This document shows, piece after piece, positions 7,547 through 51,477 of a DNA stretch of 64,000 nucleotides. The position numbers and the translations under genes are program-made. This stretch comes from Candidatus Nomurabacteria bacterium. Lineage in GTDB: Bacteria > Patescibacteriota > Minisyncoccia > Phycocordibacterales > UBA9973. The stretch is taken from assembly GCA_016699085.1 (NCBI GenBank), contig CP064958.1, positions 67,785 through 131,784 of the forward strand, in the 5' to 3' direction. The notes beneath the pieces are model-generated. The model was not told where the DNA came from. It saw only the letters and a list, made by a program, of their open reading frames with translations, and ran no database searches. The number at the start of each line of letters is the position of its first letter. Position 1 is the stretch's first letter.

Positions 7547-9316
7547 TTGTCATATGGTATTATTGGGCTTATGCCTGAAGAAAAATTAAACCAAATCCGT
7601 CACACCCTTGCCCATCTCTTGGCTGCATCAATACGAACACTCTATCCCAATGCACAAAATTCCATTGGCCCTGCAATAGAAAATGGCTTCTATCAAGATT
7701 TCGATTTGCCTGAGACAATATCTGAAAAAGACTTCCCTGTGATCGAAGCAAAGATGAACGAACTCTTGATGACATGGAAAGAATTCACCAAGCGAGATGT
7801 AACACCTGACGAAGCCAAAAAAGAATTTGCATGGAATAAGTACAAAGTCGAACTCATAGAAGAATTCTCACAAAAAGGCGACCAGCTAACATTCTATACA
7901 GCTGGCGAATTTGTTGATCTCTGTCGCGGCGGCCATGTTGAACATCCACATACTGATATCGTGCCAGGTTCATGGAAGCTCGATCGAGTTGCGGGAGCGT
8001 ATTGGCGTGGCGATGAGAAAAATAAAATGCTTACTCGCATTTATGGACTTGCATTTGAATCAAAAGAAAAACTCGATGGTTATATCGCCATGCAAGAAGA
8101 AGCAAAGAAACGCGACCATCGTAAACTAGGTAAAGAACTCGGATTATTTTTATTCTCTGATCTTGTTGGACCAGGATTGCCATTATGGACACCCAAAGGC
8201 ACACTGTTGCGCGAGCTTCTCAATGACTATGTCTGGAGTCTTCGAAAAAAGTATGGGTACGAAAAAGTAACAATCCCGCACATTACGAAAAAAGAATTGT
8301 ATGAGACCTCTGGGCATTGGGCAAAATATGCTGATGATCTTTTTAAAATTCATACACGGGAAAATAAACTCTTTGCTATGAAGCCCATGAACTGCCCTCA
8401 TCACACGCAAATATTTGATTCTGAACCAAGAAGCTATCGTGATATGCCGCAGCGATATTGCGAAACAACAATGGTATATCGAGATGAACAATCAGGCGAA
8501 CTATCAGGTCTGTCGAGAGTGATATCGATTACCCAAGATGATGCTCACGTTTTTTGCCGTGAAAGCCAGATCGAGGAAGAATCATTAAAGATTTGGGATA
8601 TTATTGAAAAATTCTATGGTGCATTCGGCTTTGAGCTCACACCACGACTATCTCGACATGATCCTGATAATTTTGAAAAATATCTAGGCACAAAAGAAAC
8701 GTGGGAAAAAGCTGAAGGAGCGCTCAAAGATCTCATCGAGAAGAAAAATGCTGTCGCGATAGATGGCAAAGGAGAAGCAGCATTTTATGGACCAAAAATA
8801 GATTTCCTCGGCAAAGATTCACTTGGGCGAGAACACCAAGTGGGTACAATCCAGATAGATTTCGTCCAACCAAAAAACTTCGGTCTCACGTTTACAAATG
8901 AAAAAGGTGAGAAAGAAAATGTCGTCATGATTCACTGTGCAATCATGGGCTCTATCGAGCGATTTATGATGATCATGATCGAACATCTCGGCGGATCATT
9001 CCCAACCTGGCTCTCACCAGTACAAGTCGCAATTATTCCCGTTCGCGAAAATCATATAGAGTATGCAAAGAAAGTTGAAACAGATCTTGAAGAATCCGGC
9101 ATTCGGGCAAAAATGTATGATGCTAATGACAGCCTCGGCAAACGCATCCATGCTGCAAAAGGACAGAAAATCCCGTACGTCATTGTGATCGGTGATAAAG
9201 AAATGTCTTCAGGAAACCTCACCATCGAAAAGCGTGACGGAACAAAAGATGAGCAAACACTTGCAATCTTTATTGAAATGCTTAATGGAGAGGTCAAAAA
9301 CCGTTCATTAAATTAG
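7547..9316 (+). CDS. thrS: Threonyl-tRNA synthetase lacking the N-terminal TGS domain.
   Basis: 'HTLAHLLA' editing-domain His pair, 'RDHRKLGKELGLF', class-II motifs, 'FYGPKIDF', and a C-terminal anticodon-binding domain. Confidence 0.9.
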   Translation: MSYGIIGLMPEEKLNQIRHTLAHLLAASIRTLYPNAQNSIGPAIENGFYQDFDLPETISEKDFPVIEAKMNELLMTWKEFTKRDVTPDEAKKEFAWNKYKVELIEEFSQKGDQLTFYTAGEFVDLCRGGHVEHPHTDIVPGSWKLDRVAGAYWRGDEKNKMLTRIYGLAFESKEKLDGYIAMQEEAKKRDHRKLGKELGLFLFSDLVGPGLPLWTPKGTLLRELLNDYVWSLRKKYGYEKVTIPHITKKELYETSGHWAKYADDLFKIHTRENKLFAMKPMNCPHHTQIFDSEPRSYRDMPQRYCETTMVYRDEQSGELSGLSRVISITQDDAHVFCRESQIEEESLKIWDIIEKFYGAFGFELTPRLSRHDPDNFEKYLGTKETWEKAEGALKDLIEKKNAVAIDGKGEAAFYGPKIDFLGKDSLGREHQVGTIQIDFVQPKNFGLTFTNEKGEKENVVMIHCAIMGSIERFMMIMIEHLGGSFPTWLSPVQVAIIPVRENHIEYAKKVETDLEESGIRAKMYDANDSLGKRIHAAKGQKIPYVIVIGDKEMSSGNLTIEKRDGTKDEQTLAIFIEMLNGEVKNRSLN

Positions 9317-11074: not shown

Positions 11075-11104
11075 AACCCCCTGCATTTATACAGGGGGTT
11101 TTAT
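11075..11104. terminator. Rho-independent terminator, bidirectional. It overlaps the gyrB stop codon.
   Basis: CCCCCTG-catttata-CAGGGGG followed by TTTT. Confidence 0.7.
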
Positions 11105-13173
11105 ATATCGAGTTCTGCCATTTTGGCATGGGTTTGAATAAATGATTTGCGAGGAGCGACATCAGAGCCCATCAACATATCGAACACTTTATCTGCCTCT
11201 TCTCCGTCATCGATGGTGACTTGCTTCAAGATTCTTCGTGTCGAATCCATCGTCGTTTCCCACAACTCTTCTGCGTTCATTTCGCCGAGACCTTTATAGC
11301 GCTGCACGTGAATTTTCTGAGTTCTACCTTTGATTGGCTTATCGCCTTCCTCTTCTTCTACTACTTCATCACCCATACTTTCTTCCCCATTTTCTTCACT
11401 ATCGAGCTCCGCTCCAACGTTCCCCGCAAAAGCTACTTTCTCGGCTTCATTATACGCATAGAAAATTTCTTTGCCTTTTTTTATTTTATAGAGCGGTGGC
11501 TGTGCGATATATATATGCCCAGCATCGAGGAGTGGTCGGAAGTATCGATACAATAGTGTGAGTATGAGAGTGCGAATGTGTGCGCCGTCAACGTCGGCAT
11601 CGGTTGCAATAATTACCTTGTGGTAGCGAAGCTTGGTTATGTCGAACGTATCACCAATCGCAGTGCCCATAGCGACAACGAGATTTTTGATCTGTTCAGA
11701 TGCGAGCATGCGATCAAGACGAGCGCGCTCAATGTTGAGAATTTTTCCTCGTAACGGCAATATTGCCTGCGTACGTCGGTCACGTCCCATTTTGGCGGTA
11801 CCGCCTGCAGAATCTCCCTCTACGATAAAGAGTTCTGCATCTTCAGCTTTGGTACCAGAGGCACAATCAGAAAGTTTACCGGGGAGTGTCATGCCTTCGA
11901 GTGCACCTTTTCGAAGTACTGAATCTTTGGCAGCTTTGGCAGCTTTACGAGCACGGACGGCTATGATGACTTTGTTAATGATCATCTTAGCTTCATCGGG
12001 ATTCTCTTCGAGGTAAGAAGTAAAGGCATCGCCGAAAACAGTCGCTACTGCACCCTGCGCCTCAACTGAACCGAGTTTACCTTTGGTCTGGCCTTCGAAC
12101 TGAATTTCACGGAGCTTGACCGAGACAACTGCTGTCAAACCTTCAAGGACATCTTCCCCAGTGAAGCCACCGTCTGCTTCTTTGATAATATTATTTTTCT
12201 TACCGTACGTATTTAAAATTCTCGTTAGTGCAGTCTTAAATCCTGTGATATGAGTTCCACCCTCTTGAGTATAAATGTTGTTAGCAAATGGTACGATCTT
12301 GGTCGTGATGTCATCGATGTACTGGAGTGCAATCTCAACACCCACGTCATCAACTTCTTTGTCAACATAGAAAATCGTATTATGCACGGCTTTCTGGTGC
12401 TTGTTGTAGAAGCGAATAAGTGATACCAGTCCACCTTCGAAATAAAAAGAGATCGACGGGAATTCTAGCGCAAGCTCACTAAAATAAAATACAGAATCTG
12501 TATCAAGCTTTGGCATATCGAGCGTCCTCGCATCGATCACAGTAATCTTGAGACCTTTGACCAAATAGGCCTGCTGGCGCAAATGGTTGACGATAGTATT
12601 GTAATCAAACTGGAGAGTTTTGAATATTTCCTGATCAGGTTCAAAGGTTATAATCGTCCCGTGTAATTTTGATGAAGCGATTTTTTTGACAGCTGCTTTT
12701 TTCTTGCCCTGTGAGTATTCTTGTCCATGGACTCCACCATCGCGGTGCACGATCGCTTTTGTATAGATCGACAGCGCATTAACAACTGACGCACCCACGC
12801 CGTGTAATCCACCGGAAACTTTGTAGCCAGATTCATCACCGCCGAATTTGCCTCCCGCATGGAGTGTTGTCATGACTGTCTCAAGTGCAGAAACTTTTGT
12901 TTTTGAATGTATATCGACTGGAATACCTCGGCCGTTATCTGCAACGCGGATACGGTTGTTCGGCAAGAGTACGACTTCGATTCGATTTGCATGGCCGGCC
13001 ATAGCCTCGTCACGAGAGTTATCAAAAATTTCCCAGACTAAGTGGTGTAGACCTTCTGGTCCTGTACCACCAATATACATACCTGGACGCTTCCTCACCG
13101 GCTCTAGTCCTTCGAGAACTGAGATCGAATCTGCTCCATATGACCCTTTCTTTTTTGCGTCGCTATCTGCCAT
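11101..13173 (-). CDS. gyrB: DNA gyrase subunit B, with an acidic insertion near the C-terminus.
   Basis: GHKL ATPase motifs ('EIFDNSRDEAMAGH', 'DNGRGIP'), a Toprim domain, and 'EESMGDEVVEEEEGD'. Confidence 0.9.
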   Translation of the reverse strand: MADSDAKKKGSYGADSISVLEGLEPVRKRPGMYIGGTGPEGLHHLVWEIFDNSRDEAMAGHANRIEVVLLPNNRIRVADNGRGIPVDIHSKTKVSALETVMTTLHAGGKFGGDESGYKVSGGLHGVGASVVNALSIYTKAIVHRDGGVHGQEYSQGKKKAAVKKIASSKLHGTIITFEPDQEIFKTLQFDYNTIVNHLRQQAYLVKGLKITVIDARTLDMPKLDTDSVFYFSELALEFPSISFYFEGGLVSLIRFYNKHQKAVHNTIFYVDKEVDDVGVEIALQYIDDITTKIVPFANNIYTQEGGTHITGFKTALTRILNTYGKKNNIIKEADGGFTGEDVLEGLTAVVSVKLREIQFEGQTKGKLGSVEAQGAVATVFGDAFTSYLEENPDEAKMIINKVIIAVRARKAAKAAKDSVLRKGALEGMTLPGKLSDCASGTKAEDAELFIVEGDSAGGTAKMGRDRRTQAILPLRGKILNIERARLDRMLASEQIKNLVVAMGTAIGDTFDITKLRYHKVIIATDADVDGAHIRTLILTLLYRYFRPLLDAGHIYIAQPPLYKIKKGKEIFYAYNEAEKVAFAGNVGAELDSEENGEESMGDEVVEEEEGDKPIKGRTQKIHVQRYKGLGEMNAEELWETTMDSTRRILKQVTIDDGEEADKVFDMLMGSDVAPRKSFIQTHAKMAELDI

Positions 13174-13284: not shown

Positions 13285-14985
13285 CTAGTTTGGAATATGA
13301 ATACGCACAATGCTATACGGTGCAATCATCACTGAAGCAATAGAATCGTAGCTACTCGGACCAGAAAGTACTATCTGAGAAGTAGTTGTATTCTGATCAC
13401 CTTTTGCGCCATAGGTCGCTCCTAGTGAATTTGCTAACATTGCCTCAGCAGTAAAACTAGTCTCACCGAAATCAAAACCATTGGTAAATTTGATTGACGA
13501 AAGTGGCAGTGCAACGCCTGAGCGATTGATAATAATTAAATCTTGTTGAGTGCCATTGGTAAATCCATACACTCGTACATCAGCCGGTATACTGCCTTGT
13601 ACTGTATAGGTAAGCGCGAGTAAGTGATGCTTGGCATCAAAAAGTCCTTCTAAAAGATGGAGTGCTTGCCATGATGCACGTTTTACAATACCACCAGTTT
13701 CTTTGACATTGCCGACATCTTCACTTGCTTTATCGAATTTGGATATTAAATTCCTATCACTTCCACTCATATTCATAAAGGTAGCAGCGGTGACTGGATT
13801 ATTATGATAGGCATTATACGTAGCAACGCCGCCTAAAATAAAATCAGCAGTGTGGATGGCTTGAAACATAGTATTTTGGTAAAGCGTATTGTTGTCAGAC
13901 GATGTATCATAATCTCCCGCCAACTTAATATTGTACTGACTGATAGCAATCTTTTTACCTGGGAATGCAGCGAGTGTTCCAGCAATTTGCGCCGGATACG
14001 TAGTATCAATAAATGTCTTTGAAACTTTATTCATACAGGAAAACTGCTGATCGACAGTACCTCCACAACTAGGGTCAACCTGAAGCCAAGAATAAATTAT
14101 TGTGCCATCAAAGAAATCATTCTGCAATGCAAGAGCAGCATTCCATTCACTGAGTCTTTTACCTGACTTATCATATGGTGCTGGATGAATATATATATCA
14201 ATATTGGGATATGCTGTCTTGATCGCCAGTGCAATCGGCTTAACTCTTTGTATATAGTTTTCTACTGTTGGGAAAATATCCTCATAACCACTGAGATAGC
14301 TTTCAACACCAAGCTGTACAGCCATGATGGCAACACCTTTTGATTTCATATCTGCGATCATGGCGAGGTTGTCTTTTGTTGCTAGATCAATACTTGCTTG
14401 ATCAAATCTGCCGAACCCAGGCGCAACCTGCGAAGATACATTAAGTGACGGAAAAGCTTTCGCCCCAGAAGCTTTGAGTAGTGAAACATATTTATCGTAA
14501 AATCGATAACTGAACTCTGTTGTCCACGCGGCTTCTTTTAGTTTTGTCGTGCCATTAGTATCACGATTGATTTCAGATTCAAGTATCCCCATGCCAGGTA
14601 AATACCAATTACTATAGTTTGCGTTGGTCCCAGGCGCATAATGAAGTACCTTGATACCACCATCGGTAATAACTGTCGTAAATGCACTAGTATCAGTATC
14701 AAATCCGCCAAAAGTACTATCTATACCAGAAGCAATAATAGCATCTGGTAGAACACTACCGATTGGGACTAACACAGGATTGATTACTACTGGTACCTCT
14801 GTCGGCATCTCGGTATCACTGGTATCACTACTGGTATCGGGAATATTTGTATTAGTCGTATTAGTCGTATTTATCTTATTCTCGTCTGCCAAACGTCTCT
14901 CGTTATATTGACCCAGCCACAACATACCACTAGCTAATACGATAGCGAGTAGCCATATATATATTGATTTGTGTTTACGACGCAT
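13285..14985 (-). CDS. Secreted, membrane-anchored hypothetical protein (566 aa) with an Asn/Thr-rich linker.
   Basis: N-terminal transmembrane/signal segment and low-complexity 'NTTNTTNTN...TSSDTSDT'. Confidence 0.45.
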   Translation of the reverse strand: MRRKHKSIYIWLLAIVLASGMLWLGQYNERRLADENKINTTNTTNTNIPDTSSDTSDTEMPTEVPVVINPVLVPIGSVLPDAIIASGIDSTFGGFDTDTSAFTTVITDGGIKVLHYAPGTNANYSNWYLPGMGILESEINRDTNGTTKLKEAAWTTEFSYRFYDKYVSLLKASGAKAFPSLNVSSQVAPGFGRFDQASIDLATKDNLAMIADMKSKGVAIMAVQLGVESYLSGYEDIFPTVENYIQRVKPIALAIKTAYPNIDIYIHPAPYDKSGKRLSEWNAALALQNDFFDGTIIYSWLQVDPSCGGTVDQQFSCMNKVSKTFIDTTYPAQIAGTLAAFPGKKIAISQYNIKLAGDYDTSSDNNTLYQNTMFQAIHTADFILGGVATYNAYHNNPVTAATFMNMSGSDRNLISKFDKASEDVGNVKETGGIVKRASWQALHLLEGLFDAKHHLLALTYTVQGSIPADVRVYGFTNGTQQDLIIINRSGVALPLSSIKFTNGFDFGETSFTAEAMLANSLGATYGAKGDQNTTTSQIVLSGPSSYDSIASVMIAPYSIVRIHIPN

Positions 14986-15056: not shown

Positions 15057-16196
15057 TTATCGTATTGTCGCGTTGAATGTCTTTTGTGTTTCTTCTTCGA
15101 GGGTTTTGTGCATTTTATTTATCTCTTCATCAGTCAATGTCCGATCGAGTGATCGATACGTGATACGGTAGGCATAGCTTTTCTTACCAGAGCCGAATTT
15201 CTCAGCATTTTCATATTCATCAACAAGTGCCATTTCTTCTGCTAAATCCCCTACAACATCACGGACGAGATCAAAATAATTGTTCGGCGCAAAAGCTTCC
15301 GCATCGACAATAAAAGAAATATCTCGAATAATTGCTGGGTATTTACTAACCTCTTTGAATTTCTGACCAAGCTTCAACTGTTTCTTGACCCGATCATCCT
15401 CTGACCAGAGCAAACGAATATCTGGAAGTTCCATACCAATAATAGCGAGTCGTTCAAGTCCAAATCCGAAGGCCCAGCCATGGTAACCTTGGATACCAAA
15501 GTTTGCGAGCACTTCTTTCCTGGGCATGCCACCTCCTAATATTTCTATCCAATCACCATTGATTTGTACTTCAACTTCAAGTGATGGATCCGTATAAGGA
15601 AATGTATCTGGGTTAAAACGATAGACAACATCAGGACCAAACATTGTTTGCACTATGTCGGAAAGTGCATTTTTTAAATCATCAATCGTAAGTGACTCCT
15701 TTTCGTCAGCAACAAGATATAGCCCTCCCATTTGATGGAAAATATTCATGTGCTTGCGATCGATTTCATCTTTTCGATACACCTTACCGTAACAAATAAC
15801 TCCTATTGGTTCCTTAGTTTTTATTTTCTCCTGCACTTCAGGCAGTGTGAGGTAGTAATGCCACATGACTGTATCATGCGTGCGCAAAATATTTTTTGAA
15901 TCTACGTAGTACGTATCTGAAGTACTGCGAGCAGGATGGTCAGGCGCAAAATTAAATAAATCAAAGCTGATATCTGCAGGGACGATTTCAGGAATAATAA
16001 CGTTGTCAAAATCTTTAAGGAGCGGCATAGCCTTTACCTTTTCTACGATTTCAAATAGCGGACTCGTCGCTGTACGCGAAAGATCCAACATTGATAGGTA
16101 TCGTTTAATTCGAAGTGCTTCTGCATCATTGCGTGTCTCAAGAGCTTTGAGTAATGACTCCTCTTCTGTTGTATTTATTCGTATATCTTTTCCCAT
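15057..16196 (-). CDS. pheS: Phenylalanyl-tRNA synthetase with mitochondrial-type architecture: a PheS catalytic core fused to a C-terminal FDX-ACB anticodon-binding domain.
   Basis: Motif 1 'HPARSTSDTYY', motif 2/3 'FPYTDPSLEV' and 'GFGLERLAI'. C-terminal 'KYPAIIRDISFIVD...YAYRITYRSLDRTLTDEE' is an FDX-ACB domain, normally found in PheT or mtPheRS. Confidence 0.75.
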   Translation of the reverse strand: MGKDIRINTTEEESLLKALETRNDAEALRIKRYLSMLDLSRTATSPLFEIVEKVKAMPLLKDFDNVIIPEIVPADISFDLFNFAPDHPARSTSDTYYVDSKNILRTHDTVMWHYYLTLPEVQEKIKTKEPIGVICYGKVYRKDEIDRKHMNIFHQMGGLYLVADEKESLTIDDLKNALSDIVQTMFGPDVVYRFNPDTFPYTDPSLEVEVQINGDWIEILGGGMPRKEVLANFGIQGYHGWAFGFGLERLAIIGMELPDIRLLWSEDDRVKKQLKLGQKFKEVSKYPAIIRDISFIVDAEAFAPNNYFDLVRDVVGDLAEEMALVDEYENAEKFGSGKKSYAYRITYRSLDRTLTDEEINKMHKTLEEETQKTFNATIR

Positions 16197-16201
16197 ATAA
16201 T

Positions 16202-16432
16202 TTATTTTCGACTAAGTAGTATGTACACATAATTGCCTTTATACATCAGTGTAAACTGATGATTATCGTCATCTTCAAATTGGGCAGATTTCTTGTCATG
16301 TGCTTGGTTAAAGTAGACTTTAGCTTCAAGTGGCTCGATTTTACTTAGCAAATATGTAAGCCCGCTCTTGATATGAGCGTCTTCGGTATCATATTCAACC
16401 TTATGTTCATGGATATATTTATACGTTACCAT
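16202..16432 (-). CDS. Small hypothetical protein (76 aa).
   Basis: ORF only. Confidence 0.3.
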   Translation of the reverse strand: MVTYKYIHEHKVEYDTEDAHIKSGLTYLLSKIEPLEAKVYFNQAHDKKSAQFEDDDNHQFTLMYKGNYVYILLSRK

Positions 16433-27268: not shown

Positions 27269-28366
27269 TTATTCGTCAATTGTGAACGTCTTCATTTCCC
27301 CACCAGGGATTGTATACTCAAGTGTCTTATCATCAATCCATTTTGGCTTATGCCAAAATGTCGTATCACCCGTTCGATCAAGAAGAATTTTTTCTTTCGT
27401 TATTACATTGTAGACATAAAAAGATACCTGCATATTTTTAGATGTCCATTCTGCTTGATATTCGGCATCGAATTCTTTTGTGCCTGTCCAGGGCGGGCCG
27501 TCATCATAGGTTACCCACGCATTTTCAATATTAAATGGATCACCTTCCATGGTTCCTGTTGGAGCATCAAATAATTGCCAGTTACCTGAAGAAACATCAA
27601 CTTTCACAAATGCTAGCGTATCAGCACCGTCAAATAATCGAAACCAATAGTATTGACTATCTTTTGTCCAACCTATGAGACTAATGTCGCCACTAGCGCC
27701 CGGATATTTTGCAAATATATCTTGCATTGGAATAGCAACAACATCTTCACCGGAATCAATTGATTTGATAATGAATGAATAATCTTCGCTGCCAACATAT
27801 CCTTTTATTAAATTAATGTATTTTTCGTGTGGATCGATATCAAAAGAAGTTTGATATATTAAAGTTGGTTTATTACTTTTTATATCAGTAAATGTAAAGT
27901 TTGATTCTGGATTTTTATCTATATATGAGTATTTCCAAACTTCAAATCTGTAATCTGGTAAGATTTGAAAGTTGCTGTAATCAAACCCCCAATATCTCAA
28001 AACATACATTGCGCAATCCCTTATTTTATAGACCTCTTGATTTGGAGGAACATTGTCAATTACAAATGAATTAATTTGTGTATTTTGACTATCAGTTATT
28101 TTTACTTCCATGGGGATAAGTGGTCGATCAAGACCATTCACCGCTTTTTCTCCATCTCGGGGGAAATTAATTTGTAATCCATCTGACTGACATTTTTCTA
28201 TATTATTTGTTGCCATACTATCCCATACATCAGTAGGTGCCGGGATTACATCTTTTAGAAATTTAAAGTAGTAGAGAATAAATATAGTCAAAAAACCCAC
28301 AATGATTATGAGTACAGCATGGAATATCTTTCGATGTGAATTAGAAGTCATACGAGAGTATTCCAT
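27269..28366 (-). CDS. Membrane-anchored extracytoplasmic protein (365 aa).
   Basis: N-terminal transmembrane segment. Overlaps the upstream giant gene by 26 nt, consistent with an operon. Confidence 0.45.
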   Translation of the reverse strand: MEYSRMTSNSHRKIFHAVLIIIVGFLTIFILYYFKFLKDVIPAPTDVWDSMATNNIEKCQSDGLQINFPRDGEKAVNGLDRPLIPMEVKITDSQNTQINSFVIDNVPPNQEVYKIRDCAMYVLRYWGFDYSNFQILPDYRFEVWKYSYIDKNPESNFTFTDIKSNKPTLIYQTSFDIDPHEKYINLIKGYVGSEDYSFIIKSIDSGEDVVAIPMQDIFAKYPGASGDISLIGWTKDSQYYWFRLFDGADTLAFVKVDVSSGNWQLFDAPTGTMEGDPFNIENAWVTYDDGPPWTGTKEFDAEYQAEWTSKNMQVSFYVYNVITKEKILLDRTGDTTFWHKPKWIDDKTLEYTIPGGEMKTFTIDE

Positions 28367-31298
28367 TTGATGTTAAGAGAGCTAGTATAGACATACCGCT
28401 CTTATCATACACCTCTTCTGGCAAATTTGGCTTTGTTACAACTATATGAGTTAGATTCGTTGTTGCATTATACGTCGCAACAACTTTAAAAGCATCTTTA
28501 ACCTTTATCGTTTGAGTCAGCTTTTTATATGATCCATCATTGGCCAGATTCCATTTATACTCAATCGTTGTATGTGGAAATTTAATTTTTGGATTAGCAT
28601 TATAGCTAATATCTTTAACTCTTAGATTAATCGGAGAAATACCAGGGACAAAAGGTGCAGCATCGCTAACTAGATTGAGCTTTGTTGTATTACCTGATAC
28701 ATCAGCAATCGTATAGGTAAGATTTTCCTTCGTTGTTGAAGTTGGACTTTCTTCATCTACTCCAATAATACTTAGATCTTTATTGTCTTGATCAAATGCG
28801 ATAAATACTTCGGGAGCTGTAATATCAGGAACATTTACTTGCTCTAATATAGTTTCACCCGTACCATTTATCGTGTCATATGTCGCAATAAACGAATCAA
28901 CTTGCCCATCTGTAATACTACCTGTAGATTGACTTTGCGAATCATTACCAGATCCATCAAAAGAAGTAGCCGCAATAGTGTACGTACCTGCACCTGTGCC
29001 CGTAACCTTGAGAGTATAGTCCCCTACACTAGGTGTTGGAATGTACGCTATTTTCCAAGTATGTTCAGCTCCATTACCATCAGGATCATCATACATTTCA
29101 TTAACATAACTGGCATTGGGAATATCAGCAAAAGTCTCATCAGTAGATGGATCATAGCCAAGTTTGTTACCTGCTGGATCTGTTATAACAATATCGGCAG
29201 GAGATGCAACATTAAATGCAAGGTACACAGTTGCAACTCCAGTCGGATTTGGTTTGAAAAGTCTTAGTCCTGCAAATTGCTTACTGTATGCGCGGACATG
29301 CTCAGTAGTATTTGTTTCTGATTCATTGAGGGTTTTAGTGTTGTAAAATGCCGGATCTTTTACTTCATAATTATTGGATGAGAGCTTATTTGCAAGAACT
29401 ATAAAATGTGTGTGGGTTTTAGTATTTTTTATATACTGCACTTTTGCAATAACTGGCCGGTTGAGATCTAAATAACTATTGGCAAGACTGTAATTAGTTT
29501 CCGAGAAATCTCCAGAGTTTGCATCATAGGCTAATTGATTATCGGTGTATTGTGCTACTTTATACCAACTCATAGCACCACCAGGATAATAGCCCATATT
29601 GTTTTTTAACCAAGAATTTAATGTTAGTGGCGTTACATCATTTGCTTGTATATTTGTGATTCCATAATACCTAGCTACCATTACAGCAGAGACCATAGCG
29701 CAACCACAACTTGCAATTGTTATCCCACAACCAGTATTCCCAATACCATACGCATAATCTTGATTAAACCATGAAGAAGTTTCAGCAATACCGGGATAAG
29801 GTGATTGATTTTGTGTATACAGTGGTACATTTTGAATAACAAAATCAATATTATTTGTTATCCCAAATTCACTCCATGGGGATTTGTTATTTTGTGCATC
29901 CACTGCCCTGGCACGCCAGTGATACGAATCATCAGTATTCCCCTCACTCTTTATGCTAACTACTTCACCATCATTTACAGAGCCTGATATTAGTAAATTA
30001 GAACCGTCAAAAACTACATCATTAGGTTTAATTTCAACCTCCATAGAAGCCGTTCCTCCATCTGGCACATGCAACGTTCCTTTGAGGATAATTGTATCAC
30101 CCGTATTAAGCCCCCCTTCTGCAAGTGAGTAGCTACCATCAGATTTGAATTGAGTAAGTAAATCAATACTGGGGCCACTAGTGCCAGCAAATGGATCAGT
30201 AGATAACCATGGAGAAAATGAAGAAAGATATTGAATGTCCGCAGTATCTCCTTGTCCTGTAGGATTCACCAATTCATCATAAGGGCCACTTGGATCACCC
30301 CACCAATTATTAGTTAAGTCAGGTATAGTACCACCTATGATAAAAGCAACAGTATTCCCAGAAAAAGAACTTTGGTGGACACTAAATACCCCATGCTCTG
30401 TTCCCCGCATACCAATTGCATTATTAAGTATTTGGGAATTCGTCATTGTTAATACTTCATCATCGGGGCCCAATAGTTTGAAACCACCCTCTGAAGATAC
30501 ATTGTCAACTGCAATTTCAGAAAAATTTTTTATCACAACTGAATCAAGTGTAATATTTGTTCCTAATCCATAATATCGAATACCAGCTTTCCCAGTATCA
30601 AAAATACAATTTGTGCAACTAAGAGACGAATCGTAGGCAACAATAGCCGCATAGGTAGTGGTGTTTATTTCAGTAAAATCAGTTAAATAAACTTGAGAAG
30701 TGAAGCCACTAAAAATACCCAGCACACTATCAGCTATATCAATGTTCGTTGCTGTTATTGTTGCATGATCTGCATATATATCTCTATGATTGTGATTAAA
30801 GGAAATATGATCAATAGAGGCCGTAACACTATGGTAATAAAGCGCATTTACTGCATATGAAAAATCAACAAAAGCAAGTGCTGATGTTGCATTAAAAATT
30901 TTGATTCCTCCCCAGTCATCATATCCAGGAGATGTCAAACTACCATCATTATTAGAATCCCCGCTAACACTATCATCCAGATACGAAGTAAATATAATTG
31001 GATTTGAAGCCTCCCCGACCGCATGCAATGTGCCTTTGACAGAAAGTAGAGGTGGATCTTCATCATCGGGATCATCGGGGCCATAACTTTTAATTACAAC
31101 TCCGGGTTGGATAGTCAATATGACACCTAATGCAACATCTATCGGAGAAGTTATAATATAAGGGCTACCTCCGACATCCCATGTTGTATTGCTTGTAATA
31201 TTATTCGTAATAATAGTACTTGCATGAAGTTTGTTGTTTGGAGCAAGTACAATGATGGTAATAAGTACCATCACAATAAAAATATATTGCTTGTACAT
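28341..31298 (-). CDS. Large cell-surface protein (about 985 aa) with a signal peptide, a beta-helix-like region, a C39-like cysteine peptidase domain and C-terminal Ig-like domains. The true start is the Met at 31298.
   Basis: 'GNTGCGITIASCGCAMVSAVMVARYYG' (Cys box), then 'THTHFIVL' (His), then 'KDPA' (Asp), matching the peptidase C39/C39-like signature. The ORF-track N-terminal extension is a translated palindrome. Confidence 0.65.
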   Translation of the reverse strand: MYKQYIFIVMVLITIIVLAPNNKLHASTIITNNITSNTTWDVGGSPYIITSPIDVALGVILTIQPGVVIKSYGPDDPDDEDPPLLSVKGTLHAVGEASNPIIFTSYLDDSVSGDSNNDGSLTSPGYDDWGGIKIFNATSALAFVDFSYAVNALYYHSVTASIDHISFNHNHRDIYADHATITATNIDIADSVLGIFSGFTSQVYLTDFTEINTTTYAAIVAYDSSLSCTNCIFDTGKAGIRYYGLGTNITLDSVVIKNFSEIAVDNVSSEGGFKLLGPDDEVLTMTNSQILNNAIGMRGTEHGVFSVHQSSFSGNTVAFIIGGTIPDLTNNWWGDPSGPYDELVNPTGQGDTADIQYLSSFSPWLSTDPFAGTSGPSIDLLTQFKSDGSYSLAEGGLNTGDTIILKGTLHVPDGGTASMEVEIKPNDVVFDGSNLLISGSVNDGEVVSIKSEGNTDDSYHWRARAVDAQNNKSPWSEFGITNNIDFVIQNVPLYTQNQSPYPGIAETSSWFNQDYAYGIGNTGCGITIASCGCAMVSAVMVARYYGITNIQANDVTPLTLNSWLKNNMGYYPGGAMSWYKVAQYTDNQLAYDANSGDFSETNYSLANSYLDLNRPVIAKVQYIKNTKTHTHFIVLANKLSSNNYEVKDPAFYNTKTLNESETNTTEHVRAYSKQFAGLRLFKPNPTGVATVYLAFNVASPADIVITDPAGNKLGYDPSTDETFADIPNASYVNEMYDDPDGNGAEHTWKIAYIPTPSVGDYTLKVTGTGAGTYTIAATSFDGSGNDSQSQSTGSITDGQVDSFIATYDTINGTGETILEQVNVPDITAPEVFIAFDQDNKDLSIIGVDEESPTSTTKENLTYTIADVSGNTTKLNLVSDAAPFVPGISPINLRVKDISYNANPKIKFPHTTIEYKWNLANDGSYKKLTQTIKVKDAFKVVATYNATTNLTHIVVTKPNLPEEVYDKSGMSILALLTSNGILSYDF

Positions 31299-31396
31299 AT
31301 AGTATAAGTATATGCTTTGACTTTTTACTCGCAATATTGTAAAAATTTTTCTGTGGAAAACTTTTATATAAAAAACTTTTATGATATAAGGTTTTT

Positions 31397-31450
31397 TCAA
31401 ACTAAAATAATATATATACACGGCCGTGTATATATATTATTTTAGTTTGA
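31397..31450. promoter_or_regulatory. 54-bp perfect palindrome (putative operator) upstream of the surface-protein gene. It overlaps the stop codon of the PaaX-like gene.
   Basis: TCAAACTAAAATAATATATATACACGG|CCGTGTATATATATTATTTTAGTTTGA. Confidence 0.6.
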
Positions 31451-35089: not shown

Positions 35090-37243
35090 ATGTCAAAAGA
35101 AAACCAAACTAGCAAAAGCAAAAAAATCTCTGATTATTTTGCTGAAAATGTATTTACTGAGGAAGCAATGAAAAGCTACCTCAGCGAAGATGCCTTTCAA
35201 GGCGTAATGTCAGCTACAAAAACTGGACAAAAAATTGACCGGAAAACAGCAGACCAAGTCGCTGCGACCATGAAGTCCTGGGCAATTTCCAAAGGTGCCA
35301 CTCATTACACGCATTGGTTCCAACCACTTACAGGTGCAACAGCAGAGAAACATGACGCCTTTTTCCAACTCACTGATGAAAACAAAGGAGCAGAAAAATT
35401 CGACGGGAGTGCATTAGTGCAACAAGAACCTGATGCCAGTAGCTTCCCAAGCGGTGGACTTAGAAACACGTTCGAGGCTCGCGGATATTCGGTTTGGGAT
35501 CCGTCTTCACCTGCTTTTATTATGGAAATCGGAAGTGGAAAAACACTTTGTATTCCTACCATTTTTGTTTCCTACAATGGCGAAGCACTTGACTATAAGG
35601 CACCCTTGCTGAAATCTCTCCATGCACTCGAAACTGCTGCAGTAGAAGTGTGTCATTACTTTGATAAGAATGTTACCAAAGTGGTGCCTACACTCGGATG
35701 GGAACAGGAATATTTTGCGATTGATGAAGCACTGTTCGAAGCACGACCTGATCTGGTATTTTGTGGCAGAACATTATTCGGCCATAGTCCAGCAAAGGGG
35801 CAACAGTTAGAAGACCACTATTTTGGTTCGATCCCGGAACGGGTCTATGCATTTATGCTGGATTTTGAAACCGAATCCTTCAAACTTGGTATACCATTAA
35901 AGACGCGCCACAATGAAGTGGCTCCTGGGCAATATGAAGTGGCGCCAATTTTTGAAGAAGTAAATGTGGCCGTTGACCACAATCAATTATTGATGGATGT
36001 GATGCAACGGGTAGCGAGGCGCCATAAATTACGGGTACTACTTCATGAAAAACCCTTTGCCGGCATCAACGGAAGCGGCAAGCACAACAACTGGAGTATG
36101 GCCACTGATACCGGAAAGAATCTACTCTCACCGGGACGCACGCCAAAAAATAATTTACAGTTTCTTACCTTTTTTATCAACGTGATTAAAGCGGTAAGTG
36201 AAGGAGCCGATTTACTTCGCGCTTCCATTGCCTCTGCTGCCAACGACTTTCGTTTGGGAGCAAATGAAGCTCCTCCGGCAATTATTTCCGTTTTCATTGG
36301 CTCGTACATGACTAAAATTCTGGACGAAATCGAAACGAAAGTGGAAAGTGGAAAGTTTACTGAAGAAAGTGAGCAAAGTCTGCGTTTAGAAATTCATAAT
36401 AAGATTCCGACTTTGTTTCAAGATAATACCGACAGGAACCGTACTTCTCCCTTTGCATTCACGGGAAATAAATTTGAGGTACGCGCTGTAGGTTCATCAC
36501 AAAACTGCTCTTCCACAATGACAGTATTGAACACCATTGTTGCAGATCAGTTGATTAACTTCAAAAAAGAAGCTGATGGTTTAATTGCTAAAGGTAAGAA
36601 TCGCGAAGTTGCCATCATGGAAATACTAAAGCGTTACATTACCGAAAGCAAAAAGATTTGTTTTGAAGGTAACAACTACTCCAAAGAATGGGAAGAGGAA
36701 GCAGCACGCCGCGGATTGAGTAATGTAAAAAACACACCCCGCGCCCTCGATTTCATGATGGCCAAAAAAGGAATCGATCTATTTGTCCGAAATCAGGTTT
36801 TCACCAAAGAAGAAATTCATGCACGCCATGAAATTGAATTAGAAAAATACATCAAGATTGTTCAGATCGAAGGCCGTATTATTGGCGAACTGGCAGTGAA
36901 CCAAATCATTCCTGCAGCCATTCAGTATCAGAATGAACTGATCAATAACATAAAAGGGTTCCGGGAAATCGGGCTGGATGAACGTCATACCGAAGCACAA
37001 AAGAACCTGGTTACGGAAATCAGTGAACATGTGAATGCCATTCTGAAGATGGTTCATGAAATGACGGAAGCCCGAAAATCCGCTAATAACACAGAGGATA
37101 TCCGTGACCGGGCCATTGCCTATTGTGATACCGTTAAACCATTCTTTGATGAAATCCGCTACCGGACCGATAAGCTGGAACTGCTGGTGGATGATAAGGT
37201 TTGGCCCTTACCAAAATATCGAGATTTACTATTTTTGAAGTAA
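35090..37243 (+). CDS. glnN: Glutamine synthetase type III.
   Basis: About 717 aa. The N-terminus 'FAENVFTEEAMKSYLSEDAFQGV...THYTHWFQPLTG' and overall length match type-III GS. Confidence 0.85.
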   Translation: MSKENQTSKSKKISDYFAENVFTEEAMKSYLSEDAFQGVMSATKTGQKIDRKTADQVAATMKSWAISKGATHYTHWFQPLTGATAEKHDAFFQLTDENKGAEKFDGSALVQQEPDASSFPSGGLRNTFEARGYSVWDPSSPAFIMEIGSGKTLCIPTIFVSYNGEALDYKAPLLKSLHALETAAVEVCHYFDKNVTKVVPTLGWEQEYFAIDEALFEARPDLVFCGRTLFGHSPAKGQQLEDHYFGSIPERVYAFMLDFETESFKLGIPLKTRHNEVAPGQYEVAPIFEEVNVAVDHNQLLMDVMQRVARRHKLRVLLHEKPFAGINGSGKHNNWSMATDTGKNLLSPGRTPKNNLQFLTFFINVIKAVSEGADLLRASIASAANDFRLGANEAPPAIISVFIGSYMTKILDEIETKVESGKFTEESEQSLRLEIHNKIPTLFQDNTDRNRTSPFAFTGNKFEVRAVGSSQNCSSTMTVLNTIVADQLINFKKEADGLIAKGKNREVAIMEILKRYITESKKICFEGNNYSKEWEEEAARRGLSNVKNTPRALDFMMAKKGIDLFVRNQVFTKEEIHARHEIELEKYIKIVQIEGRIIGELAVNQIIPAAIQYQNELINNIKGFREIGLDERHTEAQKNLVTEISEHVNAILKMVHEMTEARKSANNTEDIRDRAIAYCDTVKPFFDEIRYRTDKLELLVDDKVWPLPKYRDLLFLK

Positions 37244-42049: not shown

Positions 42050-43756
42050 TTACAGTAACTTTTTCAGTCTTTTTTCAATATACATATCTATCTCGTCTAT
42101 ATTTTTCTGTAGTGTAGTAAAGATAACTTTTTCTTTCTTGTTTAACACACGGTCAATTTTTATTGCTTCAAGTGATAGTAATTGCTTTGCTAAGTCTTCT
42201 TTTACTGACACCAGTTCATTATGGATTTTAGTGATGGTTTCTTTCAACTCGCGTTCAATCTTTCTTTTTGTGCCAAAATATTTATGCCATCCAATATAGC
42301 AAACAATGAGTAAGCCGACTGAACAAAGAATTATACATAAGAGCCAGAGCATGGTAATGGTTACTTGTGCAACACTTGTCTGATTTACTTTTACAAATAT
42401 TTTTTCTGAGGGCTGGCTTTTAACCTCATCGGAAAGAATATTTGTACCGTAGATACTCAGTATTCCTACCTTTTTTATCTTATCTGTAGTAAAACTGAAA
42501 GTTCCATCCGTAGACGTTACCTCAGTATATTCCTTAATAATTTTGCCATCTAGTTGGACAGTTATGACAACAGGTGTGTCGGGATAATCGCTTTGCCCGG
42601 AAATAATGACTGATTCTCCTTTCACTATTTCTGTAGCATCAATAGATAGTACTGGTGCAGTTATATAAGAACTTTCATATAACAATTCTGACGTTGTGTA
42701 ATTACCCGCCCTGTCGTATGCCGTCACTACTAAACTATGATTTCCTTGATTCAACACTGGAAGTGAGTATTGTTCATCTATCAATGTATCACTCTTCACC
42801 AGTAACGGTTCTGCCGAATCAATTTTTATTGTGTAGTAGTCTATTCCTGAGGTCACATCTTCCGCATTTAATGTGAGTAGGTTCTTATAATCTACAGTAT
42901 GTACGACAGGAACAAATTCTTTTGGCGGTGTTGCATCTATCTTGATTTTATAATGCGCAGTTGGACTACTACCACCTGCACTGCTATATGAAAGATGGAA
43001 ATAATGTATACCGTCCACGATATTAGTAAGAGTCTTTTCTGAGACAGAACTATCATAGACTAGAGTGGGTGTTGCATTTGAGATCTTATTCAAAAGAGTT
43101 TTAAGAGAACTAACCCCATCTGGCACTTTCCAATTAAAGGAGGCAGTATTATTTGCATACCAGATTTCCTGATTTGGATGAGTACTGGAGTAAATCTGAG
43201 GTTTTACTAATGATGAACTTGAAGTATCTTCAGTGGTAGTTGCATCCTCTAGAATTCCTATAGCAACAACACTTCCTGATTTTGAAATTAAAATATTTGT
43301 ACCTAACCCATCATTTTCTCTAACCGCCGCATCAGAGTACACAATTGATGCTGTGCCTACCTTTTTAGCTTTAAATGTAATAGTTGCAATCGTACCACTA
43401 CCACCTTTATAACCAGGATTTACAATACCTCCATTATAGGAGATTACGCCTGTGGTGTTCGAAAAAGTTGGTTCTTCTACCCATAAAGTAAAAATAGAAT
43501 TACTCTTGCTTATTGATACTACCTGAAGTAAATCTACGGGAAATAAAATTTCCCCGTCAGAATTGTTTATATATTTTCCTGACGTGTTCGCAATAACGCT
43601 AATAGAAAACGTATTTCCAACACTCGTGGTGATAGTACTAGGTAAAAGCGAGAGTGTTGCGGAAAAAACAATAGTGGGTAGTAGGAAAAAAATTACTACA
43701 CTGCACGCGACAAAACTATATGTCTCAAGTATCGATTTATAGAGTAGTTTGTGCAT
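42050..43756 (-). CDS. Type-I membrane protein with an N-terminal cohesin-like domain, Ig-like domains, a C-terminal transmembrane helix and a cytoplasmic coiled-coil tail.
   Basis: Signal peptide; 'ILFPVDLLQVVSISKSNSIFTLWVEE...GTIATITFKAKKVGTASIV' cohesin-like beta-sandwich pattern; C-terminal transmembrane 'ITMLWLLCIILCSVGLLIV'. Confidence 0.5.
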   Translation of the reverse strand: MHKLLYKSILETYSFVACSVVIFFLLPTIVFSATLSLLPSTITTSVGNTFSISVIANTSGKYINNSDGEILFPVDLLQVVSISKSNSIFTLWVEEPTFSNTTGVISYNGGIVNPGYKGGSGTIATITFKAKKVGTASIVYSDAAVRENDGLGTNILISKSGSVVAIGILEDATTTEDTSSSSLVKPQIYSSTHPNQEIWYANNTASFNWKVPDGVSSLKTLLNKISNATPTLVYDSSVSEKTLTNIVDGIHYFHLSYSSAGGSSPTAHYKIKIDATPPKEFVPVVHTVDYKNLLTLNAEDVTSGIDYYTIKIDSAEPLLVKSDTLIDEQYSLPVLNQGNHSLVVTAYDRAGNYTTSELLYESSYITAPVLSIDATEIVKGESVIISGQSDYPDTPVVITVQLDGKIIKEYTEVTSTDGTFSFTTDKIKKVGILSIYGTNILSDEVKSQPSEKIFVKVNQTSVAQVTITMLWLLCIILCSVGLLIVCYIGWHKYFGTKRKIERELKETITKIHNELVSVKEDLAKQLLSLEAIKIDRVLNKKEKVIFTTLQKNIDEIDMYIEKRLKKLL

Positions 43757-48627: not shown

Positions 48628-51477
48628 TTAAAAGAAAAGAAGCATTCGCCACATTTCAGCTCCAGTATGACGCATTACGTACAAATATTTCAATCCGTCT
48701 GTGGTCTCTATTATTTCCATTCTATTACCAATAATTGCTGTGGAATGACCATATGGAATTGTTCCTAAAGATTTTACTTCATTTGTAGAAAAATTATATG
48801 CATAGATTCTACCTGTAGCATTTTTAGTAAAATAAATAGTATTTTCTCCATCATATGCATACATAGACCCCGTCGTAAGAGTTTCTGCTTGTGGTGAAAA
48901 GAAATACCCATACGTCCACCGGGAAGTGGTTATGTCATAAATATCAGCTGTATTAGAGGCACCACCTCTCGGTAAAAAAATATATTTACCTTTCGTTGCA
49001 CTATCACTATTTCCCCAAACCCACAATAATTGCATTCCGGCACCTCTTGCTGGAATACCCAAGATCGCATACGTAGAAGTTGTGTCTGTCAGAGTAAGTG
49101 CTGCTGTGGTAAGTGCGGTTGCAGTATTTGAAGTAATGGTTGCCTCCTGACCAAGCGCTGTTCCTCCTGTAATACGCAACCTCTTACCGGCCCACATATT
49201 TGTAGTCCAGTTTTTTGTGGTTGTCTCTGTGACTGGTGTTGTTGTACCACCAGCTGTTATTAAACCCCAACTATCTGCTATTTCATAATGGGTAGTACTA
49301 TCAGGAGTAAAAGATTGAGTAGCATAAGTAAGAGTGGTACTAGTATTTGAAACAACAGAAATAATACCACTTGCAAAACCTGTGCCTGCTTCTATTCGAA
49401 GCTTATATCCTGCCCAGCAGTTGGTCACCCAACTCTTTGATGAATCAACGAGTGTCGTGGTCGACCCCCCTGACGCATGTCCCCAGTTTTGCATATTTGC
49501 AGGTTTAAACTGATTGTCAGTGCCAAAAACTTTTGAATCATAAATTGCGTATCTTGAAGTTCCATTCACACCCGCTACAATAGTCGCCACCGTTAATGTA
49601 GTAGCAGTGTTCGCAGTAATCCATCGTGTCTGACTAGTAGGTGCAGTACCAGCAACTGATAGATGTACCAACTTTCCAACATGTTCATTTGTTGTCCATG
49701 CTTTTGATGCATCTACAATTAACGTCGTTGACTGAGAACTATTTGCAGCCATACTTGCAGTTGCAGTAGTAGCTACATCAAAAGTAGTTGTACTTCCAGC
49801 ACCTAATATAGTATGGGCTGTATTATAAGCTGCTTCAGAGCACCCAGCGAAAGTCACTGAGTCTCCTGTTTTAAACCAGTTCGCTGTGGGTGTTGTAATC
49901 AGACAAGTTACCCCTACTGAAGTTATTTCAATAGTACAACCAGATCCTGTGCCACCCGTAGTCGCCTTACCTGTACCAGTAGTAAATCCAGTAACCGTGC
50001 CAGAAGCAACAAGCTCTATCGCAGTAACAACACCAGTAGAACCTGAAAAAGTAGTAGCTGTAACAATAACACGGGCACCTGTGCCTCCTACTGAGCACGT
50101 CAAAATATCTCCGACTAAATATCCTGTCCCACCTGCTGTAGGTGTTGAGTTTACTGCTGTCACACCAGCTGCAATTCTTGCACCACTTGTCACACCAAGT
50201 GCATCCCAACCATTCATCTTTACCGATATATTTGTTGTAACTCCGTAATCAAAATTTTGACCTTGCATCCAGAAATCATTTTCAGGTGAATATGCGTACA
50301 TTGCACCAGCCGCACCTCCTGCTAGAAACATTTTGTCATAATCGCCCCACACTTCATAAAGAGAAGTTGCGTCTGGATTTGTATCCCATGGTTTAACTAC
50401 AGTAAACACCGTCGCTGTATTACAGACAATCCTTCGGTGTTGCCCCATTCCTGTGCCCCCAGTGATACGAATACGATAATTAACATATCTATCTACTGTC
50501 ATTGTTTGTGTGGAATCAGTCAAAGTTCTCGCAGCGCCAGCCGTAGCAGTAGAAGAAACAAATGCTGTACCTGTTTTTGCCAATCGTTCAACGGAACAAT
50601 CAGTACCTAGTGCTGCTTGTATTAAACCTTGATTACAAGTCTTTGTTTGCCAAGAATCATGTAAAATATCGTAATATTGTAGAGTAAAAAATGGTGCCGA
50701 TGCCGCAGACGACAAAACATAAATCCCTCCAGTGGTTGTTGTAAAATACGAAGTATAATCTGGTGTGACATCCCAAGTAGATACGGTGTATGTGTGGGAT
50801 AAAATTTGGAAATGTGCCTGAGAACCAGCAGTGGTAACAGGAAGCGCATAAGGTGCTACCGCTACGAAGGGTTGGTTGTTCCAAGATTCGTGTGGTTGTA
50901 AGTTTACATCATATATATAGAGAGTGGTTGCATCATTATATAAAATCTTCTTATATTGTGTCGCATCTGTACCGAACGTAATACCTACAAGATAGCCTGA
51001 CCATTGATTAAATTTCCACTTTTTAGTGGAATCAGCCAAAGTTGAAGTAGTAGTACCCGTAATCACACCTGCATCGTGAATGGTCTCACTGGTATACGTG
51101 AGTACTTTTTCTTGACCAGCACCTGTGCCGGTTAATATTTTTAATGTTTTACCATTGAGAGTGGGCCCACGAAGCCCCGCTATTTGAATAGTTGTTGCTG
51201 TCGCACTGAGTACCCGACCATGATAGCCACGGAAACCAGTATAGCGTGCAGACAAAGTGGTTACAGGAGTAGTGTTTGGCGTTGAGAGTTGTTGCCAAGT
51301 ATCAGCATAGGTATCATATCTATACAGTGTGGCAGTAGAAATATAATACAGGAATCGAGCAGATCCATCATCAGATGTAGCAAGCCCTGAAAGTGCAGCA
51401 GTGTTGGTGGGGGCAAAACGACACCACTCCCAGACTGGTAAATCAACCTGTGCTTTTAAATTATTGGTGACTGCCAT
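48628..51477 (-). CDS. Giant Thr/Gly-rich protein (949 aa) with at least six internal 45-aa repeats and no obvious signal peptide.
   Basis: Repeats of the form 'T.xDSxKxWxTNxWAGxxLRIxxGTGxGQxxxIxSNTATxLT', seen 6 times. Confidence 0.5.
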   Translation of the reverse strand: MAVTNNLKAQVDLPVWEWCRFAPTNTAALSGLATSDDGSARFLYYISTATLYRYDTYADTWQQLSTPNTTPVTTLSARYTGFRGYHGRVLSATATTIQIAGLRGPTLNGKTLKILTGTGAGQEKVLTYTSETIHDAGVITGTTTSTLADSTKKWKFNQWSGYLVGITFGTDATQYKKILYNDATTLYIYDVNLQPHESWNNQPFVAVAPYALPVTTAGSQAHFQILSHTYTVSTWDVTPDYTSYFTTTTGGIYVLSSAASAPFFTLQYYDILHDSWQTKTCNQGLIQAALGTDCSVERLAKTGTAFVSSTATAGAARTLTDSTQTMTVDRYVNYRIRITGGTGMGQHRRIVCNTATVFTVVKPWDTNPDATSLYEVWGDYDKMFLAGGAAGAMYAYSPENDFWMQGQNFDYGVTTNISVKMNGWDALGVTSGARIAAGVTAVNSTPTAGGTGYLVGDILTCSVGGTGARVIVTATTFSGSTGVVTAIELVASGTVTGFTTGTGKATTGGTGSGCTIEITSVGVTCLITTPTANWFKTGDSVTFAGCSEAAYNTAHTILGAGSTTTFDVATTATASMAANSSQSTTLIVDASKAWTTNEHVGKLVHLSVAGTAPTSQTRWITANTATTLTVATIVAGVNGTSRYAIYDSKVFGTDNQFKPANMQNWGHASGGSTTTLVDSSKSWVTNCWAGYKLRIEAGTGFASGIISVVSNTSTTLTYATQSFTPDSTTHYEIADSWGLITAGGTTTPVTETTTKNWTTNMWAGKRLRITGGTALGQEATITSNTATALTTAALTLTDTTSTYAILGIPARGAGMQLLWVWGNSDSATKGKYIFLPRGGASNTADIYDITTSRWTYGYFFSPQAETLTTGSMYAYDGENTIYFTKNATGRIYAYNFSTNEVKSLGTIPYGHSTAIIGNRMEIIETTDGLKYLYVMRHTGAEMWRMLLFF

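Follow-up and report, generated by a model that had tools for sequence, protein, structure and literature searches.

The single-chain phenylalanyl-tRNA synthetase (PheRS) of human FARS2 and yeast MSF1 (TIGR00469; 'PheRS-M' of AARS Online; structures 3CMQ and 3TUP) carries the alpha catalytic module and the B8, or FDX-ACB, anticodon-binding domain in one polypeptide. This monomeric form has been treated as exclusively mitochondrial, 'the only known monomeric class II' enzyme (PMC3275996; PMC11580382), and the AARS Online classification likewise places it as mitochondrial. Bacteroidota encode SrmL (NF051887), a family with the same PF01409 plus PF03147 architecture and a similar length (344 aa), whose name we read as an acronym of 'pheS-related mystery ligase'. 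In the literature that we searched we found no description of either a bacterial monomeric PheRS or SrmL. Here we describe a gene of this architecture in a 64,000-nucleotide stretch of Candidatus Nomurabacteria bacterium (contig CP064958.1, positions 67,785 to 131,784; hereafter the window). We propose, with a probability of about 60 %, that it encodes the working, and probably the only, housekeeping PheRS of a Paceibacteria lineage. The kind of enzyme is already known and its architecture is fully supported by sequence, profiles and predicted structure; what is new is that the gene is bacterial, lineage-wide and strongly conserved, that its product is sister to the mitochondrial group and that a carboxylate in the amino-acid pocket has been relocated.

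The product of the open reading frame (ORF) is identical to NCBI IPF86_00405, a 'hypothetical protein' of Candidatus Nomurabacteria bacterium on a contig of 808,221 bp. It combines a class II PheRS-type catalytic module and an FDX-ACB domain in one polypeptide and has no editing domain. Its parts are as follows.

15057..16196, minus strand: complete single-chain PheRS gene, 379 aa plus a TAA stop (ORF list; ATG start)
16074..16196, minus strand: short N-terminal helical segment, residues 1-41, replacing the ~100-residue coiled-coil arm of bacterial PheS (AlphaFold2 model, Pfam, alignment to E. coli PheS)
15378..16073, minus strand: class II catalytic core PF01409 (tRNA-synt_2d), residues 42-273 (Pfam, E 3e-55)
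15060..15347, minus strand: FDX-ACB (B8-type) anticodon-binding domain PF03147, residues 284-379 (Pfam, E 9e-23, profile positions 1-94 of 94)

The N-terminal segment forms two helices in the model (residues 10-20 and 25-35) and the core begins after about 41 residues. For comparison, the core of E. coli PheS begins near residue 108, and the two proteins can be aligned only from E. coli residue 71 onward. Pfam finds no PF02912 N-terminal domain in the window PheRS. At the other end, the FDX-ACB domain has a beta-alpha-beta-beta-alpha-beta fold according to the secondary structure of the model, matches the end of TIGR00472, the bacterial PheT model (690-798, the final 109 of its 798 positions), and aligns with the C-termini of solved PheT chains. 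The enzyme thus shares with canonical (alpha-beta)2 PheRS a homologous catalytic core (33 % identity to E. coli PheS, same class II motifs) and the last domain of PheT, while lacking the PF02912 arm and the B1, B3/4 (editing), B5 and B6/7 modules.

We built an AlphaFold2 model from a 76-sequence alignment, with a mean predicted local distance difference test (pLDDT) of 96.7 and a predicted template-modelling score (pTM) of 0.92. In a Foldseek search of the PDB the top six places all go to human mitochondrial PheRS, with matches that span the full length. The match to 3CMQ has a template-modelling (TM) score of 0.80 and a root-mean-square deviation of 2.9 A over 386 columns, and the closed-form human entries range from TM 0.79 to 0.81. 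The tRNA-bound open form 3TUP reaches only 0.59 because its anticodon-binding domain is rotated; the modelled resting state resembles the closed crystal form. Canonical PheS chains superpose on the core alone (TM ~0.53 of the query).

These results bear out the original prediction, made from the letters of the DNA, of a PheS core fused to an FDX-ACB domain (PF01409 at 42-273, PF03147 at 284-379, full-length match to 3CMQ), of a missing N-terminal coiled coil (about 41 residues ahead of the core, no PF02912) and of a C-terminal FDX-ACB domain of about 90 aa (PF03147 and TIGR00472 690-798). The comparison with human FARS2 that it suggested agrees as well, human mitochondrial PheRS being the best solved-structure match (E 7e-60). 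The C-terminal two-thirds of the window protein aligns with mitochondrial PheRS at 172 bits, and both proteins are without an editing domain and without a long coiled coil. An insertion in FARS2 between motifs 1 and 2, not present in the window protein, splits the alignment into two stretches.

The catalytic residues are intact, while the polar wall of the phenylalanine pocket is remodelled at D108, W112 and G157. The relevant elements are listed below.

15861..15884, minus strand: substrate loop R105-T-H107-D108-T109-V-M111-W112, against the usual R-T-H-T-S-A-H-Q (column statistics, translation)
15723..15782, minus strand: class II motif 2, VYRKDEIDRKHMNIFHQMGG, with G157 in place of the usual Glu/Asp (human Glu159) (alignments, translation)
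15591..15602, minus strand: aromatic wall of the phenylalanine pocket, F199-P-Y201-T202 (human F232-P-F234-T235); FPYT does not vary within the clade (column statistics)
15450..15479, minus strand: class II motif 3, G240-W-A242-F-G-F-G-L-E-R249, fully conserved (120 close homologs, translation)

Across 120 close homologs the motif 2 residues R141, D143, E144, D146, H149, F153, H154 and Q155 are invariant, with the class II arginine carried by the stretch VYR141KDEIDRKHMNIFHQ, and the pocket residues F199, T202 and A242 are unchanged in all 120. The pair that recognises phenylalanine and the floor of the pocket are likewise kept (F199, Y201, T202 and A242, corresponding to F258/F260/V261/A314 in Thermus thermophilus and F232/F234/T235 in human). 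The second aromatic residue, Y201, is a phenylalanine in mitochondrial and bacterial enzymes; eukaryotic cytosolic PheRS has the same, conservative Tyr-for-Phe replacement (PMC3275996, from which we also take the roles of the pocket residues).

The other differences fall on the substrate loop and on motif 2. D108 and W112 are lineage-specific, and the window protein has FHQMGG where other PheRS have FHQxEG. Human numbering was obtained by counting residues along the aligned chains: T120 is the counterpart of D108, Q124 of W112 and E159 of G157 (the human loop residues being H119, T120, S121 and Q124), so that the window set D108/W112/G157/Y201 stands against T120/Q124/E159/F234 in the human mitochondrial enzyme.

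Positions 108 and 157 are coupled. In a first survey of 216 full-length proteins, 118 combine HDT with QxG and two combine HGT with QxD, while in all other lineages the residue at 108 is not acidic and position 157 holds E or D; the exception, P0146, matches the query over just ~144 residues. Among 71 species-level orthologs, the acid is at 108 only in 54, at 157 only in 15, at both in 2 and at neither in none. Evidently one carboxylate is indispensable and may sit at either position. Two reverted sequences within the close clade, P0054 and P0107, are sisters in just 1 % of bootstraps, which implies at least three independent switches between the two positions.

The polar wall is, we assume from Thermus structures and from the general description in the review cited below, what contacts the substrate amino group. 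The carboxylate would then have moved from motif 2 (FHQxE) to the T-H-x-T loop (D108 together with G157), with the neighbouring Gln becoming Trp112. In human mitochondrial PheRS, which has no editing and binds m-tyrosine just 5-fold worse than phenylalanine, Gln124 and Glu159 hydrogen-bond the meta-hydroxyl of m-tyrosine (PMC3275996, a review from the Safro laboratory). Both of these hydroxyl-contacting side chains are gone in the window clade, replaced by Trp and Gly. By analogy we infer that the relocated D108 would keep the alpha-amino contact and that loss of the hydroxyl-binding groups would disfavour m-tyrosine and tyrosine.

We hypothesize, by analogy, that the enzyme works as human mitochondrial PheRS does. 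It would be monomeric and closed at rest, and its FDX-ACB domain would move outwards to contact the GAA anticodon of tRNA-Phe; the core would make Phe-AMP and then transfer phenylalanine to the tRNA. Without a B3/B4 editing site, the enzyme would have only its synthetic site to ensure accuracy. The change in the pocket may partly compensate for the missing editing by removing contacts that favour hydroxylated analogues while preserving alpha-amino binding.

The gene is widespread and strongly conserved. The 90 % cluster database contains thousands of close homologs of 69-79 % identity, about 377 aa long and with both domains, and when GTDB was scanned with a single genome for each species, orthologs appeared in at least 558 species genomes. 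The best 80 of these include Nomura-, Zambryski-, Kaiser-, Taylor-, Jorgensen-, Giovannoni-, Staskawicz- and Harrisonbacteria as well as Minisyncoccia, so that their names span the former Parcubacteria; a closed 808 kb chromosome (OZ246418.1) is among them. To judge the degree of conservation we used neighbouring genes, which are not part of the enzyme, as yardsticks.

11101..13173, minus strand: gyrB, syntenic neighbour (translation, synteny)
7547..9316, plus strand: thrS, encoding ThrRS, syntenic neighbour (Pfam, synteny)

For the same pairs of genomes, identity is 69-75 % for PheRS, 68-71 % for GyrB, 59-63 % for ThrRS, 63 % for the helicase and 53 % for DnaE. PheRS is thus on a par with GyrB and above ThrRS, which indicates that purifying selection acts on it with the strength typical of core essential genes. 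The PheRS-GyrB-ThrRS-DnaE neighbourhood was found again in relatives that are 71-75 % identical, the loci compared being L003 (same species), L008 and L009, and this recurrent synteny argues for vertical inheritance.

To place the protein among its relatives, we searched 1.84 billion representatives exhaustively with HMMER, which returned 226 clusters at E <= 1e-30, and derived a tree from the catalytic core. The tree is a crude one, being a neighbour-joining tree of 230 columns rooted with E. coli PheS as single outgroup. Group A (82 % bootstrap) comprises the long proteins of mitochondrial type together with many of ~350 aa and, through P0147, SrmL. Group B (98 % bootstrap) holds cellular proteins, namely the Paceibacteria clade (100 %), P0121, P0124 and P0126/P0129. 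On this tree the window protein appears as a bacterial sister of the mitochondrial and viral group rather than as a member of it. The 'mitochondrial-type' label of the original prediction therefore holds for architecture and fold and fails for clade membership; the window gene is, moreover, bacterial and chromosomal.

Some of the relatives deserve description in their own right. P0124 comes from an Oligoflexia metagenome-assembled genome (MAG), GCA_019694465.1 (L002, 10001-11245): a 414-aa group B single-chain PheRS homolog from outside the Candidate Phyla Radiation (CPR), of 50 % GC (guanine plus cytosine) and labelled hypothetical at NCBI. It has Gln for His in the T-H-T-S loop, as does E. 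coli PheS. The gene of P0129 (8001-9371 on L007) has in-frame TGA codons at two invariant motif 3 glycines, and every gene that we checked on this 18 kb contig contains many in-frame TGA codons. The TGA codons at the glycines of P0129 point to genetic code 25 (UGA=Gly) and hence to a Patescibacterium of the Gracilibacteria or Absconditabacteria type. The database protein, translated with table 4, carries 13 'W' residues at TGA codons that are probably glycines.

Group A also contains single-chain PheRS from contigs that resemble phage or virus genomes (P0136/P0279 and P0145). These have the same architecture at ~350 aa and, unlike the window protein, pass the pheS_mito cut-off. Such PheS plus FDX-ACB genes lie at 8001-9047 on L005, a 340,874 bp ENA scaffold, and at 8001-9065 on L006, a 160,460 bp Logan contig. 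Both contigs have 27-31 % GC, are packed with small same-strand ORFs and give a few phage-like Pfam matches (PhageMetallopep, PcfJ, SNF2, dCMP deaminase and eIF-1a); they have the look of genomes of huge phages or giant viruses. BFVD, a library of viral structures, contains no equivalent.

The original prediction also suggested that the organism may lack a beta subunit with its editing domain, an absence that does not follow from the architecture by itself. As the original prediction had noted, there is no pheT in the window: neither pheT nor a second pheS is found among the ten largest ORFs, and tblastn with E. coli PheT and PheS matches the window PheRS gene alone. This weighs little because the window is ~8 % of the 808 kb contig. 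Similarly, no separate beta subunit lies in the neighbourhood of the window gene or beside its ortholog in the 80 species, where the 1.23 Mb of flanking sequence contains no canonical pheS or pheT; this too is weak evidence because it covers ~2 % of each genome. Used as a probe in Paceibacteria DNA, E. coli PheT retrieves just the C-terminal region of the window-type gene itself.

A trace of PheT, which ties the locus to the charging of tRNA-Phe, was found in a sub-lineage. In 6 of the 80 species the single-chain PheRS gene is preceded, at a distance of 8-69 nt and on the same strand, by a stand-alone PF01588 (tRNA_bind) gene encoding 136-196 aa; the window and the other 74 loci have no such gene. 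The coordinates are given on the respective contigs.

L033 9566-9976, same strand as PheRS: stand-alone PF01588 gene
L038 9502-9993, same strand as PheRS: stand-alone PF01588 gene
L067 4763-5173, same strand as PheRS: stand-alone PF01588 gene
L071 9510-9932, same strand as PheRS: stand-alone PF01588 gene
L079 9345-9935, same strand as PheRS: stand-alone PF01588 gene
L090 2920-3366, same strand as PheRS: stand-alone PF01588 gene

The best match of the encoded protein is the B2 segment of PheT (TIGR00472 positions 41-151, 102-114 bits), with YtpR, TapR, CsaA and MetRS-C matching less well. The family comprises 754 proteins, the best 120 of which are all stand-alone and include no full-length PheT; the Joint Genome Institute (JGI) pipeline names them 'PheRS beta chain'. 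In this sub-lineage the B2 of canonical PheT thus persists as a small separate gene, and two beta modules (B2 and B8) survive at the locus without the editing, B5 and catalytic-like modules.

As a general rule, a second enzyme for the same task is uncommon in genomes of ~0.6-0.9 Mb. Together with the essential-gene-like conservation, the breadth of species, the housekeeping neighbourhood and the PheT-B2 remnant gene, the tiny size of these genomes favours the single-chain enzyme as the sole PheRS of the lineage.

A number of observations weigh against this conclusion. The window protein falls under the curated cut-offs of the relevant NCBIfam models: it scores 234.9 bits on SrmL, its top-scoring model (cut-off 300), 231.3 on pheS_mito (TIGR00469; 258.35) and 171.3 on pheS (TIGR00468; 237.45), as well as 67.3 on pheT (TIGR00472; 402.65). 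The 'hypothetical protein' label at NCBI is explained by these scores, which lie below the cut-off of every NCBIfam PheRS model. For comparison, the nearest outgroup, P0121, is above the pheS_mito cut-off with 264.3 bits, and most clade A proteins pass as well. The m-tyrosine rationale draws on contacts in the human enzyme and not on the geometry of the model, and the pocket changes could signal a changed substrate. SrmL presents the same architecture as an accessory paralogue, so that a single chain is not equivalent to a sole enzyme, and the Oligoflexia MAG of group B probably has a normal pheST. A canonical pheST may also exist elsewhere in the 808 kb genome. PheRS-beta can be present among CPR bacteria at large (PMC5370408), and the class Paceibacteria itself includes a case of canonical pheST: in Ca. 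Yanofskyibacterium parasiticum a canonical pheT (B3/4, CLM, B5, FDX-ACB) adjoins a canonical pheS (PF01409 plus PF02912) (table in PMC10936435). None of the 866 features of that MAG is a second PF01409 or PF03147 protein (PMC10936435), so that the sole completely inspected genome has the canonical form without the single-chain form; this complementarity of the two forms speaks for the sole-enzyme reading, with one genome as its basis.

The alternative that survives best is that the gene encodes an accessory SrmL-like ligase beside an ordinary pheS/pheT pair, not engaged in bulk charging of tRNA-Phe; it could be a PheRS that serves as a back-up or resists an inhibitor, or an enzyme charging a special tRNA or another acceptor. 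We consider this unlikely. SrmL is the top NCBIfam model for the window protein, and true SrmL proteins combine the same architecture with an ordinary active site in large Bacteroidota genomes of 4-7 Mb (Adhaeribacter, Sphingobacterium, Chryseobacterium and Myroides), in which they occur patchily. To our knowledge, the large-genome Bacteroidota with SrmL all have ordinary pheS/pheT. Judging from these taxa and from the curators' name, SrmL presumably coexists with a normal pheST, and the existence of such a family means that architecture alone does not prove the heterotetramer absent. The canonical pheST in another Paceibacteria lineage also speaks for an accessory role of the window gene, although the single genome in which it was found is without the window-type gene.

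Nevertheless, the window protein differs from SrmL in several respects. True SrmL proteins score 306-336 bits on their own model and also pass pheS_mito, against 235 bits for the window protein; they group with the mitochondrial and viral clade A through P0147, whereas the window protein belongs to group B (98 % bootstrap); and they keep the ordinary HTS...QxE site, which the window protein does not. The context is different too. In Adhaeribacter radiodurans (CP055153.1, 6.8 Mb genome) the SrmL gene (L091, 8001-9035) adjoins an rve transposase gene in a non-housekeeping context, while the window gene sits in the conserved GyrB/ThrRS/DnaE neighbourhood, is conserved like GyrB and is present in at least 558 species of genome-reduced bacteria.

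A second alternative is a synthetase that has shifted from phenylalanine to another aromatic or non-standard amino acid through D108, W112, G157 and Y201. Three to four positions lining the pocket are indeed unlike those of all characterised PheRS, and the protein scores below every curated PheRS cut-off. We nonetheless regard a shift as quite improbable: the aromatic pair and the pocket floor are kept, the rule of always one carboxylate indicates preserved binding of an alpha-amino acid, and the FDX-ACB domain, which is highly conserved, closely resembles that of FARS2. Moreover, sister lineages with the ancestral T108/D157 are otherwise near-identical, which argues for drift within one function, and the genomes would still need a PheRS.

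Finally, contamination or recent transfer from a eukaryote (FARS2-like), a giant virus or a huge phage, suggested by the mitochondrial identity of the best solved-structure matches and by related single-chain genes on phage- or virus-like contigs, can be rejected as most improbable on the conserved synteny with bacterial housekeeping genes across species 59-79 % identical and on the separation of the clade from the mitochondrial and viral group (98 % and 82 % bootstrap), the composition of the gene (GC 0.40) being unremarkable within the window.

If the gene is the housekeeping PheRS of its lineage, it would offer a free-standing bacterial model of the smallest known aminoacyl-tRNA synthetase and a natural experiment in accurate translation without an editing domain, in which D108, W112 and G157 are testable residues. 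It would also explain the annotation gap, with a 'hypothetical' label and every curated PheRS model failing. The pheS and pheT profiles belong to standard bacterial marker sets; both would therefore read as missing here, biasing completeness estimates and phylogenomic alignments.

Such a role would also reopen the question of where mitochondrial PheRS came from. It is conceivable, if doubtful, that a major branch of the Paceibacteria dismantled the heterotetramer and came to rely on the alpha-core/B8 monomer alone, with a re-engineered pocket and, in a sub-lineage, a free-standing B2, and that monomeric PheRS is a bacterial invention later acquired by mitochondria and huge phages. A bacterial invention is suggested by the Paceibacteria clade and its code-25 Patescibacteria and Oligoflexia relatives, which together are the sister of the mitochondrial and viral group.

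Apart from PheRS, the window, which uses the standard genetic code, contains dnaE, thrS, gyrB, an AddA-like helicase gene, a type III glutamine synthetase gene, secD and one tRNA-Ser; rplT and infC are not in the window. A 76-aa ORF at 16202-16432 stops 5 nt before the PheRS start codon and is conserved within the same species alone (L001 and L003). We considered this ORF as a conserved partner of PheRS and rejected it, since it has no homolog upstream of PheRS in relatives and the small ORFs at L008 and L009 are unrelated. Four large ORFs, at 28341-31421, 48628-51477, 42050-43756 and 13285-14985 (1026, 949, 568 and 566 aa), have no Pfam match at E 1e-5. In the window and in L001 and L003, contigs of the same species, the 566-aa ORF separates PheRS from gyrB; it is missing from this position in the relatives L008 and L009. 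The type III glutamine synthetase, at window positions 35090-37243, has the domains GSIII_N, Gln-synt_C and Gln-synt_C-ter and is encoded in a small genome that is otherwise metabolically sparse.

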